From: Candidatus Microgenomates bacterium
GTDB taxonomy: Bacteria > Patescibacteriota > Microgenomatia > Daviesbacterales > UBA10151
Assembly (NCBI GenBank): GCA_016182045.1
Contig: JACOYE010000011.1
Span: 39-64,038, forward strand
DNA: 64,000 bases
Direction of reading: 5' to 3'
Position 1 is the first letter of the stretch. The number at the start of each line of letters is the position of its first letter. Positions 24,561 to 60,781 of this stretch are shown here, one piece after another. Below the pieces are notes generated by a model that was not told where the DNA came from, did not search any database, and saw nothing but the letters and a program-made list of their open reading frames with translations. The position numbers and the translations under genes are program-made.

Positions 24561-26552
24561 TCATACATTTAACCATTCTTCCTCATCAACTCCAGTATCC
24601 GTATCATCCAAGAATTGATCTGAATCTTTAAAAGTAGCATTTGATGAGATTAAGTGCTCAGGGATATCAGACAAGAAACGGGAAACCAGATTATTAGATC
24701 TTGTGCCAAAATATAATCTTTGTCTGGTATATGTTAAATATAACTTTTCCTTGGCCCGAGTAATCCCCACATAACAAAGCCTTCTTTCTTCCTCCAGTTC
24801 ATTAACATCAAGCATGGATCTAGAATGAGGGAACAATCCCTCCTCCATGCCTACTATAAAAACAACAGGAAACTCTAAACCTTTGGCAGAATGTAGGGTC
24901 ATTAAGGTTACTACATCTTGAGCTTGATTATTGGGGATGTTAGGGCGGCTAGGTAAATAGCCATTTTCCACCAAAGCTACATTTTCTAAAAAGTCTACTA
25001 AATTGGGAAATTCTTCTGCCACAGATCGAAGTTCTTTGACATTTTCCACCCGTCCCTTTCCTTCTTCAGTGCCATCATCTAAATATGTCAAGTAGCCTGT
25101 GACTTGTAGGATTTTATCCAGAAGCTCCATAGTGGTGTAACCACTTTCGTCATTGCGAGGAGACGTAGTCGACGAAGCAATCTCATTAACAAGATTGCCA
25201 CGCGAACTTCGTTCGCTCGCAATGACGTTTTGCAACTCCATTATTTTTGCAAGTCTGCCCTTACCAATTTTTTCTGCCCGCTTTAAGGAAACAGAATCTT
25301 TGGGATTTTGTAAAAGTCTTAAATAGGCAAGAACATCTTTAATTTCTTTTCTTTGATAAAAACTGACTCCACCGACTAATCTGTAAGGGACGCCCGATTT
25401 TAAAAATTGTTCCTCCAAAGACCTTGATTGGGCGTTAGTACGGTAGAGGATAGCAAAATCTGATAGCGGTTTGTTGTCATTGCGAGGAGACGTAGTCGAC
25501 GTGGCAATCTTTATTTTTGAGCCAGATTGCTTCGCTTCGCTCGCAATGACGTTTAAAATGAATAAAGTTTCCGCTACCTCATTTCTTACTTCCACCACTT
25601 CTATTTTTTCTCCTCCATCTTTTTGAGTCCAAAGTTTTAAAATTGGATGAGATTTATTTTTGGAAATAACAGCATGAGCTGCATCCAGGATGTTTTGAGT
25701 AGATCTATAATTTTGTTCAAGATTAAAAATTTTGGCATTGGGATAGTCTTTTTCAAAATTGACTATATTTCTAAAATCAGCTCCTCGGAATGAATATATG
25801 GACTGGCTTGCATCACCTACTACGCAAATGTTTTTATGACGGTTAGCCAAATATTTAGAAATTAAATATTGGGCAGGATTGGTATCCTGATATTCATCGA
25901 TTAAGATATATTTAAATTGGATTTGATATCTGGTTAAAATGGCTGGTTCTGTTTGAAAAAGCTGGATCACTTTTAATAGCAGATCATCAAAATCCAAAGC
26001 ATGATTTTTTTCCAAAATTTTCTGATATTCCAGATAAATTTTGGCCACAAGTTCCTGGAAAAAACCTCTGGCATATTGAGGATATTCTAAAGAAGAAATT
26101 AATTCATTTTTGGCCCCGGAGATGGTGGCCCGAACTGCAGAAGGGGAGGTTTTTTGAGTTGGAATATTTAAATTACCCATGGCTTCTTTGATAGCATCCA
26201 AAGCATCGGATTCATCATAAATAGCAAAGCCGGGAGGAAGCCCTAGCACTTTGCCTTCACGACGCAAGATTTTGGCACAGAAAGAATGGAATGTGCCCAT
26301 CACTGGTTGGGTGGGAAGATCGCCAATTAATTTTTTAATTCGCTCAATCATCTCTCCGCTGGCCTTATTTGTAAAAGTTAATACAAGTATATTTTCAGGT
26401 GGAATTTTCTTCTCAGAAATTAAGTAAGCCACTCTGTAGGTGAGTACTCTGGTTTTTCCAGAACCAGCTCCGGCTAAAATTAAAACTGGGCCTTCAGTTT
26501 GTTTGACAGCTTTTTGTTGAGCGGGATTTAGATCATCTAGGAGAGCAGACAT
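24561..26552 (-). CDS. UvrD/PcrA/Rep-family superfamily-1 DNA helicase (start moved to ATG at 26552, MSALLDDLNPAQ)
   Basis: LLDDLNPAQQ, Walker A GAGSGKT and motifs through TLHSAKGLEFPVVF...RRLCYVGITRAK. It carries two in-frame MITE-like inserts. Confidence 0.9.
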   Translation of the reverse strand: MSALLDDLNPAQQKAVKQTEGPVLILAGAGSGKTRVLTYRVAYLISEKKIPPENILVLTFTNKASGEMIERIKKLIGDLPTQPVMGTFHSFCAKILRREGKVLGLPPGFAIYDESDALDAIKEAMGNLNIPTQKTSPSAVRATISGAKNELISSLEYPQYARGFFQELVAKIYLEYQKILEKNHALDFDDLLLKVIQLFQTEPAILTRYQIQFKYILIDEYQDTNPAQYLISKYLANRHKNICVVGDASQSIYSFRGADFRNIVNFEKDYPNAKIFNLEQNYRSTQNILDAAHAVISKNKSHPILKLWTQKDGGEKIEVVEVRNEVAETLFILNVIASEAKQSGSKIKIATSTTSPRNDNKPLSDFAILYRTNAQSRSLEEQFLKSGVPYRLVGGVSFYQRKEIKDVLAYLRLLQNPKDSVSLKRAEKIGKGRLAKIMELQNVIASERSSRGNLVNEIASSTTSPRNDESGYTTMELLDKILQVTGYLTYLDDGTEEGKGRVENVKELRSVAEEFPNLVDFLENVALVENGYLPSRPNIPNNQAQDVVTLMTLHSAKGLEFPVVFIVGMEEGLFPHSRSMLDVNELEEERRLCYVGITRAKEKLYLTYTRQRLYFGTRSNNLVSRFLSDIPEHLISSNATFKDSDQFLDDTDTGVDEEEWLNV
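25149..25226 (-). mobile_element. 78-bp MITE-like palindromic element with 12-bp terminal inverted repeats (gtcattgcgag...ctcgcaatgac), in-frame in the helicase gene
   Basis: 78 bp = 26 codons, translated as VIASERSSRGNLVNEIASSTTSPRND. A second copy lies 337 bp away. Confidence 0.5.
25486..25560 (-). mobile_element. 75-bp second copy of the MITE-like element, in-frame in the helicase gene
   Basis: 75 bp = 25 codons, translated as VIASEAKQSGSKIKIATSTTSPRND. The first 26 nt and last 13 nt are identical to copy 1, and it has the nested gcaatct/agattgc inverted repeat. Confidence 0.5.
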
Positions 26553-26588
26553 GAAGCATATATTAACATTTGCCAGCAAAGTTGACAA

Positions 26589-26619
26589 AGTTTGTAAGAT
26601 TTCAGTTAAAATTTAGGTA
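26589..26619 (+). repeat. Direct repeat DR-A copy 1 (agtttgtaagatttcagttaaaatttaggta, 31 bp)
   Basis: Perfect identity with 27602-27632. Together the copies bracket the GC-rich segment. Confidence 0.9.
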
Positions 26620-26917
26620 AATTTTCAATGTTTGGAGGCTAAAGTATTGAAAAATATGTTAAAATATCATTGAAATCTTATGCCAGAAAGGATAAGGATC
26701 GTATTTCTACCTTCAGGACTACTCCGATAGAGGTAAATTACGAGCTATCAACACGGAAACAGAAGCACCAAAGCAGCCGCCGATAGAACGTTTAAAACGA
26801 CTCTTAGTAGGGTGGGCAAGGCGTGGTCGCACAGGGACAGAAGCAAATCCAGAACAACAGATATTAACTCCTGTCCGTCTTAAAGACTATCTTCTACAAG
26901 CAGCAAAAAGCCCATCG

Positions 26918-27556
26918 TTGGCAGTTAATCCCATGCCTAAAGTTTTTGACCTTGGGGAATTTGGAAGAGAAGCAGAAAGATTATTGCACCTATCCCTGAG
27001 AGATCCTAAACACCCGGAGTATGCCTCAATAGCTTGCATTAACGATAAAGGTCGGCTCGTCATCTTAAAGGAACCCATCCGAGGTGATGAGAGGAGCGTT
27101 CCGGTTCCCGCCCCCAAGGATAAACGCAGGGTCCTTTTGCTACATACCCACGGTGACACTGATACTCCTTTCTCCGCAAGTGATTTAGAGGGCTTATTTG
27201 TGCCCTCAGCCGAGAATGGGGTTCCAGCCGTGCTTCTCGCCACTCCGAGTCTGAAAATGCTGATTCTTCGCACCAAAGATACTCCCTATCTCACGCCGCT
27301 TCAAATTGAAGATAGGACTGTGATGATGTGGCTCCACCCAGCTACGGAAGAGGAGAGAAAACTATTCGAAGCTGGTTATCAGGCAGCGGGCGGTGAAGAA
27401 GCCGATAGGCCACCAGAGCTTACTCCAGAGTATAAGCAAGCCCTTCGTCAGCTCAGCAGCAAGCGAATGTTCGTGCTCACCCGCGCTGCCCATGAGTATA
27501 ATCTCAAAGGCTACTCTTGCCCATCTAACCAGAATATTGTGTCACTTCTCAGCTAA
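26918..27556 (+). CDS. JAB/MPN (JAMM) metalloprotease-domain protein on a GC-rich foreign segment, probably 5-prime truncated
   Basis: LLLHTHGDTDTPFSASDL is a perfect HxHx7SxxD JAMM/RadC-like motif, with an upstream Glu in ILKEPIRGDE. The frame is open from 26696 (74 codons upstream of the TTG start) with no start codon. GC is roughly 50% by eye against AT-rich flanks. Confidence 0.5.
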   Translation: MAVNPMPKVFDLGEFGREAERLLHLSLRDPKHPEYASIACINDKGRLVILKEPIRGDERSVPVPAPKDKRRVLLLHTHGDTDTPFSASDLEGLFVPSAENGVPAVLLATPSLKMLILRTKDTPYLTPLQIEDRTVMMWLHPATEEERKLFEAGYQAAGGEEADRPPELTPEYKQALRQLSSKRMFVLTRAAHEYNLKGYSCPSNQNIVSLLS

Positions 27557-27601
27557 CCCGCATCTTTAGTGGCGAGCCAGAAAATGGTGGGGTCACTTCC
27601 C

Positions 27602-27632
27602 AGTTTGTAAGATTTCAGTTAAAATTTAGGTA
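27602..27632 (+). repeat. Direct repeat DR-A copy 2
   Basis: Identical 31-mer to 26589-26619. It abuts DR-B copy 1. Confidence 0.9.
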
Positions 27633-27633
27633 G

Positions 27634-27653
27634 TTTTCCCCTAGACAATTTTT
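27634..27653 (+). repeat. Direct repeat DR-B copy 1 (ttttcccctagacaattttt, 20 bp)
   Basis: Identical 20-mer at 28540-28559. The copies bracket the two-gene NTase cassette. Confidence 0.8.
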
Positions 27654-27679
27654 GGCTTTGGAAATGGTATAATTAAGGT

Positions 27680-27943
27680 ATGTATAACTGGTCTGTTGAT
27701 GAAAAAAGGTTTAAAAAGGAAAACCCTAAAGAGTATAGACTGTGGAGGTTGGTGCAGCTGATAAACTATGGACTGGATGGAGAAAAACTGGATAGGGAGG
27801 AGGTCAAAAAAGCCTGGCCGAAGATTAAAGATCAGCTTGATCCATATAAGGCTAGGGCAATAGAATATTTATTATGGGGAAAGCTATACTCACTCCCGAA
27901 CAACTTAACTTTCTGGAATTTATCCAAAAAGAACAACAAATAA
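27680..27943 (+). CDS. Small hypothetical protein upstream of and overlapping the NTase gene (candidate partner/antitoxin)
   Basis: 87-aa ORF. It overlaps the next ORF by 70 nt in another frame. No family recognised. Confidence 0.3.
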   Translation: MYNWSVDEKRFKKENPKEYRLWRLVQLINYGLDGEKLDREEVKKAWPKIKDQLDPYKARAIEYLLWGKLYSLPNNLTFWNLSKKNNK

Positions 27944-28539
27944 CCAAACGCTTTTATTGGACCGGCGGAACAGTTCTTTCTGAATTCTACCTGCAACACA
28001 GACTTTCGGAAGATATAGATTTATTCAATGAATTTGAGGAGGTAAATCAGAGTTTAATAGATGCTTTCTTAAAAAAGATTTCACCTTCACTTCAAGTAAC
28101 AGAGATTAAGAAAAGTCAGTTTTTAGGTTTAGTGAGTTATATCTTGGTTTTTAAAAATAGTCAGAAACTAAAAATAGATTTTAATTATTATCCATTTCCT
28201 AGAATTGAAAAAGGCAAGAAATATAAAAATTTAGAGATAGACAGTATTTATGATATTGCTGTAAATAAAGTGCATACTATGTTTATGCGGACAAAAGCCA
28301 GGGATTTTGTTGACATTTATTTCATCATGAAAACAATTGATTATCATTTAGATCAGCTCATCAGGGACGCGAAGGTTAAGTTTGACTGGCATATTGATAA
28401 AGTTACTTTGGCCAGTCAATTTATGAAAGTCAAAGAAATTAAAGATTTACCTAAAATGTTGTTACCATTTAATCAAAAAGATATGGAAAAATTTTATCTA
28501 AAGCTGGCTAAATCTTTAGAAGAAGAGATCTTAAAATAA
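27874..28539 (+). CDS. Pol-beta-superfamily nucleotidyltransferase, AbiEii/DUF1814-like (abortive-infection / type IV TA toxin family)
   Basis: YWTGGTVLSEFYLQHRLSEDIDLF matches the GG...S.DhD NTase motif and AbiEii N-terminal architecture. 221 aa. Confidence 0.55.
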   Translation: MGKAILTPEQLNFLEFIQKEQQITKRFYWTGGTVLSEFYLQHRLSEDIDLFNEFEEVNQSLIDAFLKKISPSLQVTEIKKSQFLGLVSYILVFKNSQKLKIDFNYYPFPRIEKGKKYKNLEIDSIYDIAVNKVHTMFMRTKARDFVDIYFIMKTIDYHLDQLIRDAKVKFDWHIDKVTLASQFMKVKEIKDLPKMLLPFNQKDMEKFYLKLAKSLEEEILK

Positions 28540-28559
28540 TTTTCCCCTAGACAATTTTT
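28540..28559 (+). repeat. Direct repeat DR-B copy 2
   Basis: Identical to 27634-27653. It lies immediately upstream of trxA. Confidence 0.8.
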
Positions 28560-28585
28560 TAAACTATTGTTATTATCTAAATCTT

Positions 28586-28846
28586 ATGGCAGTTAAACTT
28601 TTGGATTTTTGGGCTCCTTGGTGTGGACCCTGCCATGTTATGACTCCTGTTTTGGAAGAGATTAAAAAAGAAATGGGAGATAAGGTGGAAATTGAGGAAA
28701 TTAATGTAGATGAAAAACCTGAGGAAGCTTCTAAATTTGGAGTCATGAGTATTCCTACCTATATTATATTAAGGGATAATAAAGAGGTTGGAAGGAAAAT
28801 TGGGGTTACCCCAAAAGCAGAGCTAATAAAACTTCTACAAAGTTGA
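28586..28846 (+). CDS. trxA: Thioredoxin
   Basis: WAPWCGPC active site, 86 aa. Confidence 0.9.
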   Translation: MAVKLLDFWAPWCGPCHVMTPVLEEIKKEMGDKVEIEEINVDEKPEEASKFGVMSIPTYIILRDNKEVGRKIGVTPKAELIKLLQS

Positions 28847-29142
28847 ATTTCAAGGAGAAAGTCATCAATATTGTTAAGAAAATACCATATGGTCGAGTAA
28901 CCACCTACGGTACCGTGGCAATTTTGGCTGGTGTCCCTCGTGGGGCAAGATTGGTGGGTGGGGTTTTACACTTTAATATTGAGGCTGCACCATGGCATAG
29001 AGTTATTAACCGACATGGATTTATTTCTACCAAATGTTTGGAGCATCCTAAAGCTTTACAAAAGATACTTTTGGAACAGGAGGGAATTGAGGTAACTGAC
29101 GATTTCATGATAGACTTACAAAAGTATGGATGGTGGGGATAA
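28843..29142 (+). CDS. Alkyltransferase-like (ATL) protein: MGMT/Ogt DNA-binding domain with PWHRV instead of PCHRV
   Basis: VPRGARLVGGVLHFNIEAAPWHRVINRHGFIS. Trp replaces the acceptor Cys, as in ATL proteins (Atl1/YbaZ). Translationally coupled to trxA. Confidence 0.7.
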   Translation: MNFKEKVINIVKKIPYGRVTTYGTVAILAGVPRGARLVGGVLHFNIEAAPWHRVINRHGFISTKCLEHPKALQKILLEQEGIEVTDDFMIDLQKYGWWG

Positions 29143-58399: not shown

Positions 58400-60781
58400 A
58401 TGAACAAAGTTATTACAAAAGAGATAGATCTAAATGGTCGCAAGTTGAAACTTGAAACTGGCAAATTGGCTTTGCAAGCTGATGCTTCAGTAGTGGTATC
58501 TTGGGGCGAAACAGTAATTTTGGCAACTGTGGCTACCCAGCCTCAAAAAGAAGATATTGGTTATTTTCCATTATCTGTTGAATATGTGGAAAAACACTAT
58601 GCCGGCGGAAGAATTTCCTCTTCCAGATTTATTAAAAGAGAAAGTAAACCCACTGATGAGGCTATCTTGACTGGTAGATTGATTGATCGCTCTATCCGTC
58701 CACTTTTCCCCAAAGATTTTAAAAATCAGGAAGTACAGGTGATTTTAACTGTTTTATCAGTTGATCAAAACAATGATCCTGATATTGTCGGTTTGATTGG
58801 AGCCTCTGCTGCACTTTCCATCTCCTCAGTGCCTTGGAGCGGACCAATTGCTGCTATCAGAGTGGGTGAGCGGGATGGCAATTTGGTGGTAGATCCCACC
58901 ATAGATCAGATGGAACATCTTAACATGGATCTTATAGTCGCTTCAACCAAAGACAAGGTGGTAATGATAGAAAGTGAAGCTAAACAAACTTCAGATGAGG
59001 TGATTTTTTCAGGCATCAAGGAAGCCCATGCTCAAGTCCAGCCGATCATTGAGCTGATAGAGCAGTTTAGTAACCAAGCAGGCAGAGAGAAGCAAACCTA
59101 TTCTCATTTGGTGGAAGAGGTGGAAGAGGCACTGCTTTTGGAGGTGAAAAAGATCACTAAGGAAAGAATTGAGGCTGCACTTTTTGACAATGAACATCCT
59201 TGGCATGAGGCAACTGGTGATTTGATCAAAAAAGAATTGGCTCTTCAATATGCAGAAACTTTAACTCCTCAGATAATTTCCGGAATTTTTGATAAGGTAG
59301 CCAAAGAAATCTTGCACGAGGCAGTTCTTAAAAAAGGTAAAAGAGTTGATGGCAGGGCCATGGATGAGATTAGGCATTTGGAGATGGAAGTAGGAATTTT
59401 ACCAAGAACTCATGGATCTGCTCTTTTTCAGCGGGGTGACACACAAATTTTGTCTGTGGTAACCTTAGGCGCTCCATCCTTGCAACAAACTTTGGAGGGG
59501 ATGGAAGGTGAGAGGCAAAAAAGATTTATGCATCATTACAATATGAGTATCAATCCTTTTTCTGTGGGTGAGGTTAAAAGGTTGGGTCCTCCAAATCGAC
59601 GTGATATCGGTCATGGATCTTTGGTGGAAAAAGGTTTAAATGCGGTGATTCCTTCCGAGGATAAGTTTCCCTATGCCATCAGAGTGGTATCAGAAGTCTT
59701 GGCAGCCAATGCTTCCACCTCAATGGCCGCTCTTTGTGGATCAACCTTGGCATTACTTGATGCCGGTGTACCTTTGTCAGAATCTGTGGCAGGAATTGCC
59801 TTGGGACTTTTGACTGATGGTGATAAATGGCAGGTCATTACCGATATGAGGGCTGTAGAGGACTTTTACGGTGATATGGATTTTAAGGTGGCAGGTACTA
59901 AAAATGGAGTGACAACAATTCAGATGGATACTAAACTTGACGGATTAACTTTTGAGATTATTGAGAAAGCACTGGAAATGGGTAAAAAGGCCAGGCTAGA
60001 AATCTTAGAACAGATGAATAAAGTAATAGCGGCTGCTGGTCCTTTATCTCCTCATGCTCCCAGAGTGGAGATATTACATATAAAACCAGAAGAGATTGGT
60101 TTGCTAATTGGGCCTGGAGGTAAAAATATTAATGGCATAATTTCCAAAACTGGAGCACAGATTGATATTGAGGATGATGGGACTGTGATGGTTTCTGGGA
60201 CCAACTCGGAAGGGGTGGATAAGGCAATTGCCTCAATTGAAGGCATGTTTAAACAAGTCAATGTAGGGGATGAGTTTTTAGGCAAGGTGGTCAGAATTGC
60301 TCCTTTTGGAGCTTTTGTGGAGATTGCTCCTGGAAAAGACGGATTGGTTCATATTTCCCAGATGGCTCCAGGACATGTGGAAAGACCAGAGGATGTGGTG
60401 ACTGAGGGGCAAGAAGTGAAGGTGAGGGTAACTGATGTTTCTCCAGAAGGAAAAATTGGCTTATCCATGCTTTTTGGAGCAGACGTAAAAAAGGAATCTG
60501 AAAGCAGGCCTAGAAGTAGTAGTTTTAGACCAAGACCTTCATTTGGAAACTCGCCTCGCTTCGCGGGCGGAGCGGGTAGATCAAGATCATCAGGTGGTGG
60601 GTATAGATCGGGAGGGGGCAGACGGGATTTTGGTGTAAGTGAGAGAAGAGGGCCTTTTGATAGAACCAGGGCCAGATTTGAAAGAAAACCATTTGGAGCA
60701 AGAGGTGGGGGAAGACCTGCCCGCCGAAGCGGTTTTGGCGAAGGCGGGGATAGAGGTGGACGTGGTGGCTTCAATAGATGA
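58400..60781 (+). CDS. pnp: Polynucleotide phosphorylase with Arg/Gly-rich C-terminal tail
   Basis: Two RNase PH domains, KH (LIGPGGKNINGI), S1, then an RGG-rich ~100 aa tail. Confidence 0.95.
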   Translation: MNKVITKEIDLNGRKLKLETGKLALQADASVVVSWGETVILATVATQPQKEDIGYFPLSVEYVEKHYAGGRISSSRFIKRESKPTDEAILTGRLIDRSIRPLFPKDFKNQEVQVILTVLSVDQNNDPDIVGLIGASAALSISSVPWSGPIAAIRVGERDGNLVVDPTIDQMEHLNMDLIVASTKDKVVMIESEAKQTSDEVIFSGIKEAHAQVQPIIELIEQFSNQAGREKQTYSHLVEEVEEALLLEVKKITKERIEAALFDNEHPWHEATGDLIKKELALQYAETLTPQIISGIFDKVAKEILHEAVLKKGKRVDGRAMDEIRHLEMEVGILPRTHGSALFQRGDTQILSVVTLGAPSLQQTLEGMEGERQKRFMHHYNMSINPFSVGEVKRLGPPNRRDIGHGSLVEKGLNAVIPSEDKFPYAIRVVSEVLAANASTSMAALCGSTLALLDAGVPLSESVAGIALGLLTDGDKWQVITDMRAVEDFYGDMDFKVAGTKNGVTTIQMDTKLDGLTFEIIEKALEMGKKARLEILEQMNKVIAAAGPLSPHAPRVEILHIKPEEIGLLIGPGGKNINGIISKTGAQIDIEDDGTVMVSGTNSEGVDKAIASIEGMFKQVNVGDEFLGKVVRIAPFGAFVEIAPGKDGLVHISQMAPGHVERPEDVVTEGQEVKVRVTDVSPEGKIGLSMLFGADVKKESESRPRSSSFRPRPSFGNSPRFAGGAGRSRSSGGGYRSGGGRRDFGVSERRGPFDRTRARFERKPFGARGGGRPARRSGFGEGGDRGGRGGFNR
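60549..60576. repeat. GC-rich element, family 1, within the pnp tail
   Basis: actcgcctcgcttcgcgggcggagcggg. Confidence 0.5.

Follow-up and report, generated by a model that had tools for sequence, protein, structure and literature searches.

What does a small open reading frame (ORF) contribute when it precedes, and overlaps out of frame, a gene for a nucleotidyltransferase (NTase) of a toxin family? The question is raised by two + strand ORFs at positions 27680-28539 of a stretch of 64,000 nt from contig JACOYE010000011.1 of Candidatus Microgenomates bacterium, which is analysed here as a whole and called the window. The upstream ORF encodes a protein of 87 amino acids (aa), referred to as ORF87, and the downstream ORF encodes a 221-aa NTase of the AbiEii/DUF1814 type. 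The pair is rather likely to be a toxin-antitoxin (TA)-like cassette of the AbiE/MenAT class, in which the winged helix-turn-helix (wHTH) protein AbiEi has been replaced by a small helical partner. A preliminary description of the locus had raised a novel antitoxin-toxin pairing as one option among others, and it is this option that now emerges as the best reading, with a partner that is genuine and lacks a wHTH domain.

An obligate pair of overlapping genes

The putative toxin gene, AbiEii, starts with an ATG and occupies 27874-28539 on the + strand. Its 221-aa product matches the Pfam AbiEii profile (PF08843) with 58.7 bits against a cut-off of 22.5 bits, and residues 25-190 align with positions 13-209 of the 238-position profile, so that the protein, read from its own N-terminus, contains a complete domain. 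In addition, 17 AbiEii models of PADLOC match the protein, and the motifs YWTGGTVLSEFY and RLSEDIDLF, from which the preliminary description had recognised an AbiEii/DUF1814 NTase, are both present, so that assignment is borne out by the profile search. All four NTase motifs (hGG[ST]; [ST]xDxD; hDh; C-terminal K...RD..D) can be located, with the key residues being G31-G32-T33 in motif I, S45-x-D47-x-D49, K100-x-D102, K132, R143-D144 and D147 (+ strand; S45 codon at 28006-28008). Among 127 non-redundant intact ORF87-AbiEii pairs, which form the conservation set used throughout, G31, G32, S45, D47, D49, K100, D102, K132, R143, D144 and D147 show no or almost no variation (conserved in 126-127 of 127). 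An AlphaFold2 model of the NTase (predicted local distance difference test score, pLDDT, 85.7; predicted template modelling score 0.80) has as its top Foldseek matches JHP933 (4o8s, E=1e-7, template modelling (TM) score 0.56) and MenT1 (8an4, E=2e-4). The 221-aa protein is thus, as judged from its sequence, an AbiEii-family NTase that should be catalytically intact. By motif and spacing, Ser45 would occupy the phospho-acceptor position of MenT1 T39, MenT3 S78 and AbiEii T65; it lies in an S45-x-D47 motif, and the 15 residues separating K132 from D147 match the spacing of K137 and D152 in MenT1 (literature positions). A second AbiEii-like match in the window, at 59961-60125, was discarded as spurious, being antisense to the gene for polynucleotide phosphorylase (PNPase).

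The putative antitoxin gene, ORF87, also starts with an ATG and lies at 27680-27943 on the + strand. AbiEii is read in the -1 frame relative to it, and the 70 nt at 27874-27943 (+ strand) are dual-coding, specifying residues 66-87 of ORF87 and residues 1-23 of AbiEii. Two sets of loci bear on how strictly the two genes belong together. With each GTDB species represented by one genome, a scan gave 131 ORF87-selected loci, of which 80 were retained, and 80 metagenome loci were selected by AbiEii, 70 of them with enough upstream DNA for the presence of a partner to be judged. In approximately 70 of the 80 ORF87-selected loci the ORF87 ATG is followed, at +194 or +197, by the start of an AbiEii homologue in the -1 frame, and conversely an ORF87-family gene is found at the canonical offset upstream of AbiEii in 70/70 of the AbiEii-selected loci with room upstream, an arrangement far beyond chance. 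In about 8 of the 80 ORF87-selected loci (L012, L015, L025, L041, L044, L076, L067 and L082) ORF87 is intact but AbiEii is missing, frameshifted, truncated or shortened by an internal deletion, while no intact AbiEii without an ORF87-family partner was seen among the 70 checkable AbiEii-selected loci. That the partner is sometimes alone and the toxin never is the asymmetry expected of a TA module. The pair is therefore an obligate, conserved architecture.

The overlap itself is under constraint. Its length is 70 nt in 86 of the 127 intact pairs, which is the mode of a range of 19-88 nt, and the AbiEii ATG is retained in all loci except one, where it is TTG, although the A of this ATG falls on the synonymous third position of a Leu or Ile codon of ORF87. 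Over the initial 45 nt of this overlap (nucleotides 196-240) entropy is low at codon positions 1, 2 and 3 alike (0.45, 0.55 and 0.72), compared with ordinary third-position values of 1.26 in ORF87 and 1.61 in AbiEii, which indicates that both reading frames constrain the sequence. In the region that encodes ORF87 only, entropy by codon position is 0.73, 0.47 and 1.26 (54 non-redundant loci for these entropy values), a coding signature which shows that ORF87 is a translated gene.

ORF87 belongs to a previously unannotated family, which adjoins AbiEii genes strictly. Searches of Pfam, PADLOC, NCBIfam and PHROGs returned no match at E<=1, so that no AbiEi domain is recognisable in ORF87, and searches of the PDB with the single sequence or a profile gave no sequence match at E<=10 and no fold match. 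The preliminary description of an 87-aa upstream ORF which overlaps the NTase gene by 70 nt in another frame and has no wHTH AbiEi domain accordingly stands, on the ORF coordinates and these profile searches. A search of 5.8 billion proteins retrieved 724 ORF87 homologues, and when a profile was run against 1.84 billion cluster representatives, 172 clusters (50% identity) fell into the family at E<=1e-3. Nearly all of the best 120 homologues are 83-96 aa long and 75-93% identical; their hosts are Daviesbacteria, Levybacteria, Beckwithbacteria, Gottesmanbacteria and related lineages, and the named entries are all 'hypothetical'. No relatives of ORF87 were found in the viral contigs of IMG/VR. 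The AlphaFold2 model of ORF87, built from a 27-sequence alignment (pLDDT 73), has helices at residues 8-14, 16-30, 39-52 and 55-66, forming a four-helix core of residues 8-66, and a tail that is disordered from residue 67; this tail (residues 67-87) is encoded inside the AbiEii gene. Distant members of the family are only 65-70 aa long and end just past the conserved Trp66, from which it follows that the core domain is about 65 residues and that the tail is specific to the subfamily of the window. Two such relatives, of 67-69 aa, are likewise followed directly by a Pfam AbiEii gene, which they overlap by 19 nt.

The cassette appears to carry its own promoter. An extended -10 element, TGgTATAAT, lies at 27665-27673 on the + strand and ends 6 nt before the ORF87 ATG, and in an alignment of 75 non-redundant upstream regions TGnTATAAT is present at -15..-7 in nearly all, with homology fading beyond about -20. 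The ORF87 ATG has no Shine-Dalgarno sequence upstream, and this geometry predicts a leaderless mRNA that starts at the ATG. The AbiEii start is 194 nt inside ORF87, and in the window copy there is no canonical Shine-Dalgarno sequence upstream of the AbiEii ATG. A toxin start embedded in a leaderless, efficiently translated ORF would hold toxin synthesis low relative to the partner. As such, the leaderless mRNA and the 70-nt dual-coding overlap would offer a natural example of a set toxin:antitoxin ratio without Shine-Dalgarno sequences. An Rfam scan of 26400-29000 gave no match to an RNA element at E<=1. The downstream thioredoxin gene (28548-28585 region) resembles ORF87 (27665-27679) in having a TG-extended -10 element 6-9 nt before its ATG and no Shine-Dalgarno sequence, and leaderless transcripts may be common in this genome.

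Antidote, accessory subunit or other arrangement

ORF87 is probably the antidote of AbiEii. By analogy with MenT1, MenT3 and the AbiEii of Streptococcus agalactiae, the NTase would poison translation by adding nucleotides to tRNA 3' ends, and ORF87 would stand in for the wHTH AbiEi/COG5340 antitoxin by neutralising the toxin through direct binding. It might do so by inducing auto-phosphorylation of the conserved Ser45 in the manner of MenA1. Both small non-wHTH antitoxins of DUF1814 toxins and induced auto-phosphorylation have precedents (PMC11375011; bioRxiv 10.64898/2026.01.19.700257). Furthermore, the pair displays the generic features of type II-like TA modules, namely a partner for 70/70 AbiEii genes, retention of the partner at about 8 of 80 loci with a decayed toxin, and a variable genomic location.

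Several properties of ORF87 nevertheless weigh against a conventional antitoxin. The core is basic, with a median isoelectric point of 9.4, and ORF87 is more conserved than AbiEii (mean pairwise identity 68% versus 60%), being the more conserved partner in 75% of comparisons. Its identity is 0.68 within and 0.67 between AbiEii clades, whereas that of AbiEii itself falls from 0.64 to 0.52. Between the window and locus L006 the ORF87 proteins are 94% identical with only 58% identity at third codon positions, which denotes strong purifying selection and not recent transfer, and the AbiEii proteins are 57% identical. There is also no detectable similarity of ORF87 to MenA1, AbiEi or any solved structure. 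The usual antitoxin is acidic, fast-evolving and co-diversifying with its toxin, the opposite of ORF87, and the conservation pattern hints at an extra or different role. An alternative that takes these properties at face value, and that we regard as possible yet doubtful, makes ORF87 an obligatory accessory subunit (a tRNA/RNA adaptor, an activator, a trigger sensor or an operon regulator) and the pair a two-subunit enzyme or defence sensor. Basic charge and a purifying selection stronger than that on the enzyme would suit such a subunit, divergence that is independent of the AbiEii clades suggests contact with something invariant, and strict co-occurrence fits an obligate subunit equally well. 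Degraded AbiEii beside intact ORF87, never the reverse, fits the logic of an antidote better, however; a small gene placed first and overlapping the next is typical of TA modules, and all characterised partners of DUF1814 proteins are antitoxins (PMC11375011; bioRxiv 10.64898/2026.01.19.700257). A related and bolder proposal, which is improbable, is that ORF87 represents a new sensor or adaptor class for the DUF1814 defence enzymes of Patescibacteria and that, separately, the cassette and the neighbouring DUF4329 gene described below were moved by an undescribed, recombinase-free type of insertion. As such a sensor, ORF87 may recognise something conserved in the cell or in a phage (tRNA, ribosome or phage protein) and gate the NTase, and its extreme conservation, independence of toxin clade and basic charge would fit a sensor of a conserved component.

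Two further alternatives came from the preliminary description or extend it. One is that ORF87 and AbiEii yield a single fusion protein through programmed -1 ribosomal frameshifting, or that a longer gene has become a frameshifted pseudogene in the window copy, which is very unlikely. A heptamer G_GGA_AAG at 27876-27882 (ORF87 frame) coincides with the AbiEii ATG, G GGA AAA is present in about half of the loci, and a few ORF87-AbiEii fusions are found in databases (P0287, P0129 and P0209). The heptamer is, however, disrupted in many loci (TGG GAC AAA, TGG CAA AAA, TGG AGA AAA), RNA structure in the overlap region is not significant (z = -0.86), and the AbiEii ATG is kept everywhere except in a single locus, despite its A being synonymous in ORF87. 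The database 'fusions' are single short contigs with indels and are no evidence of function in cis: P0209 combines TGA read-through with a frameshifted AbiEii on one 1.4-kb contig, and P0287 and P0129 are known from one contig each, with frame shifts just upstream of the AbiEii ATG. A sequencing frameshift or pseudogene, which the preliminary description had considered, is rejected, since the out-of-frame two-ORF layout and its overlap are kept in 127 non-redundant loci, AbiEii contains its entire domain when read from its own ATG, and the overlap is constrained in both frames. The same description had likened the NTase and its upstream neighbour to the NTase plus JAB (Cap3) combinations of CBASS (cyclic-oligonucleotide-based anti-phage signalling systems), and a CBASS-related signalling defence including this neighbour deserves next to no credence. 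The neighbour, a 212-aa gene at 26918-27556, is adjacent, bears the JAMM-like HxH-x7-S-xx-D string HTHGDTDTPFSASD and has a weak Prok-JAB match of 13.3 bits. That match is below the cut-off of 25, whereas the score for DUF4329, 30.1 bits, exceeds its cut-off of 28.6. Moreover, the gene is absent from 165/165 related loci tested, its GC content of 0.52 deviates from that of the surroundings (about 0.37) and of the ORF87-AbiEii cassette (0.28-0.33), and it is bracketed by its own exact 31-nt direct repeat (26589-26619 and 27602-27632). The NTase is of the AbiEii type, this being its sole Pfam match, and its model resembles CD-NTase (cGAS/DncV-like nucleotidyltransferase) structures only at E>=1.4e-3 and TM about 0.3, while neither an effector nor an E1/E2 gene occurs near the cassette in the ORF list of the window. 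The analogy thus fails because every defining feature of CBASS (CD-NTase, Cap3 linkage, E1/E2, effector) is lacking; what survives of the earlier remark is its own caveat that the NTase is no typical CD-NTase, in line with Foldseek, and that E1/E2 genes are missing from the ORF list.

Mobility and genomic context

The neighbours of ORF87-AbiEii differ between genomes, and up to three copies of the cassette occur in one genome (L012, L031, L046). In the window it occupies a variable spacer with the UvrD helicase gene on one side and the thioredoxin (trx) gene on the other. In relatives whose UvrD is approximately 80% identical, the gene order G5/3D - UvrD <-> spacer - thioredoxin - MGMT-like - TIM - LytR is maintained, and their UvrD-trx spacers contain differing small ORFs, with ORF87, AbiEii and DUF4329 absent from all of them. 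The comparison was made at the level of gene synteny, as the spacer DNA of relatives that share about 80% protein identity has diverged too far for a precise empty site to be defined.

The cassette is flanked by direct repeats of 23 nt. The left copy (27631-27653) ends 26 nt before the ORF87 ATG, and the right copy (28537-28559) begins at the AbiEii stop codon and holds the -35-like TAGACA of the thioredoxin promoter. Their exact 20-nt core, TTTTCCCCTAGACAATTTTT, lies at 27634-27653 and 28540-28559, with two copies in 64 kb against an expectation of 0.02. Such repeats are not peculiar to the window. Of 107 loci with 300-nt flanks, 15 (L051, L147, L141, L071, L011, L030, L013, L155 and L048 among them) have direct repeats of 14 nt or more that match exactly from one flank to the other, compared with 0.2 expected from permuted partners. 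They are locus-specific and 14-87 nt long. The end of the upstream copy often falls 22-36 nt ahead of the ATG, immediately beyond the promoter; a tRNA is involved in one case only (L013). No recombinase is present within the cassette. The flanking repeats suggest insertion with long target duplications of variable length, and a recombinase-free insertion of the kind mentioned above may leave such duplications, of 14-87 nt. The best explanation of these observations is that ORF87-AbiEii is a compact, horizontally mobile module of about 0.9 kb, mainly of Microgenomates and other Patescibacteria.

The DUF4329 gene, with about 290 nt of non-coding DNA before it (region 26589-27637), looks like a second, independent insertion, which shares with the cassette both the UvrD-thioredoxin spacer and the repeat signature. 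Other features of this neighbourhood were noted in passing. The UvrD/PcrA gene (24561-26588, - strand) contains two in-frame palindromic copies of about 80 nt, GTCATTGCGAGG...CTCGCAATGAC, at 25148-25227 and 25476-25554, which probably explain its length of 675 aa as against about 620 aa in relatives and resemble elements of the MITE (miniature inverted-repeat transposable element) or REP (repetitive extragenic palindromic) kind tolerated inside coding sequence. At L171 (2083-3693) the syntenic thioredoxin gene is called as 536 aa with a thioredoxin domain and is either a fusion or a different gene.

Comparison with known DUF1814 systems

AbiE is among the most abundant phage-defence and TA systems, the tools used to find defence systems require AbiEi, and the Patescibacteria are deemed poor in defence. 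Because of this requirement, ORF87-AbiEii cassettes would be scored as 'orphan' AbiEii and missed in Patescibacteria. With AbiE proper (AbiEi-AbiEii of Lactococcus and Streptococcus agalactiae) the cassette shares a downstream PF08843 NTase with the four motifs and the S/T-x-D position, as well as a bicistronic operon in which the partner gene comes first and the genes overlap. AbiE was first classed as type IV and has lately been argued to be type VII. The two systems differ in the partner, as AbiEi has approximately 200-300 aa, whereas ORF87 has 87 and is all-helical; the cognate antitoxin, which belongs to COG5340 and consists of an N-terminal wHTH and a C-terminal antitoxicity domain (Pfam AbiEi_1-4), is not what ORF87 encodes. 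The 70-nt out-of-frame dual-coding overlap, the predicted leaderless mRNA and the Patescibacteria hosts further set the cassette apart from AbiE.

In the size of its partner, the cassette is closer to MenA1-MenT1 of Mycobacterium tuberculosis (Rv0078B/Rv0078A), in which the antitoxin of a DUF1814 toxin is likewise a very small helical protein; it lacks a wHTH and carries a disordered tail. MenA1, of 7.4 kDa, binds MenT1 and induces its auto-phosphorylation at T39 (PMC11375011). The match of the AbiEii model to MenT1 is a further point of likeness. In contrast, ORF87 has neither sequence nor fold similarity to any PDB entry, 8AN5 included, it is four-helical, basic and highly conserved, and the toxin is only about 14% identical to MenT1. 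The closest solved structure is that of JHP933, an NTase from the plasticity zone of Helicobacter pylori (4O8S/4OK0), which is reached by sequence (E about 1e-3) as well as by fold, but identity is about 20%, and the partner protein and biology are not comparable.

Pairs of DUF6922 (PF21956) with AbiEii may offer a nearer relation. They occur in the same lineage and also place a small helical protein, of about 100 aa, directly upstream of AbiEii, with an overlap of 52 nt, as in the module on the - strand at L172 6554-7446. In three Daviesbacteria loci (L033, L063 and L078) a DUF6922-AbiEii module and an ORF87-AbiEii cassette are no more than a few kb apart. An hhalign comparison of 66 ORF87-family members with four DUF6922 proteins gave a collinear alignment of 61 columns (NWSvD ~ FWDVD) at P=6.7e-4 with a probability of only 27%, and PF21956 itself matches 2 of the 66 members weakly (best E=0.026, below the cut-off) and neither the window ORF87 nor the remaining members (64/66 without a match). 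Only two Pfam families are matched by two or more members of the ORF87 family; DUF6922 is one of them, and the other is not known to pair with AbiEii. DUF6922 differs by an additional C-terminal segment, CLQxxYLKxRxxxWPY, and no mention of it was found in the literature searched. Taken together, the alignment and the weak profile matches are suggestive, and ORF87 may be remotely related to DUF6922.

The antitoxins of DUF1814 toxins are already known to be diverse, comprising COG5340 AbiEi/MenA3 (wHTH and C-terminal domain), MenA4, MenA1, SanaA and RlegA (PMC11375011; bioRxiv 10.64898/2026.01.19.700257), and the MenA antitoxins alone represent three independent protein families (PMC11375011). 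As far as sequence comparison and the structural model can tell, ORF87 falls outside all of the known families. Both AbiEi and the tiny MenA1 have been argued to neutralise through auto-phosphorylation of the toxin (PMC11375011; bioRxiv 10.64898/2026.01.19.700257), and the ORF87 core of about 65 aa would be a minimal test case for antitoxin-induced auto-phosphorylation as the proposed general mechanism. If the ORF87 family were defined, perhaps in connection with DUF6922, the unrelated antitoxin solutions by which DUF1814 toxins are held in check would gain a fourth or fifth.

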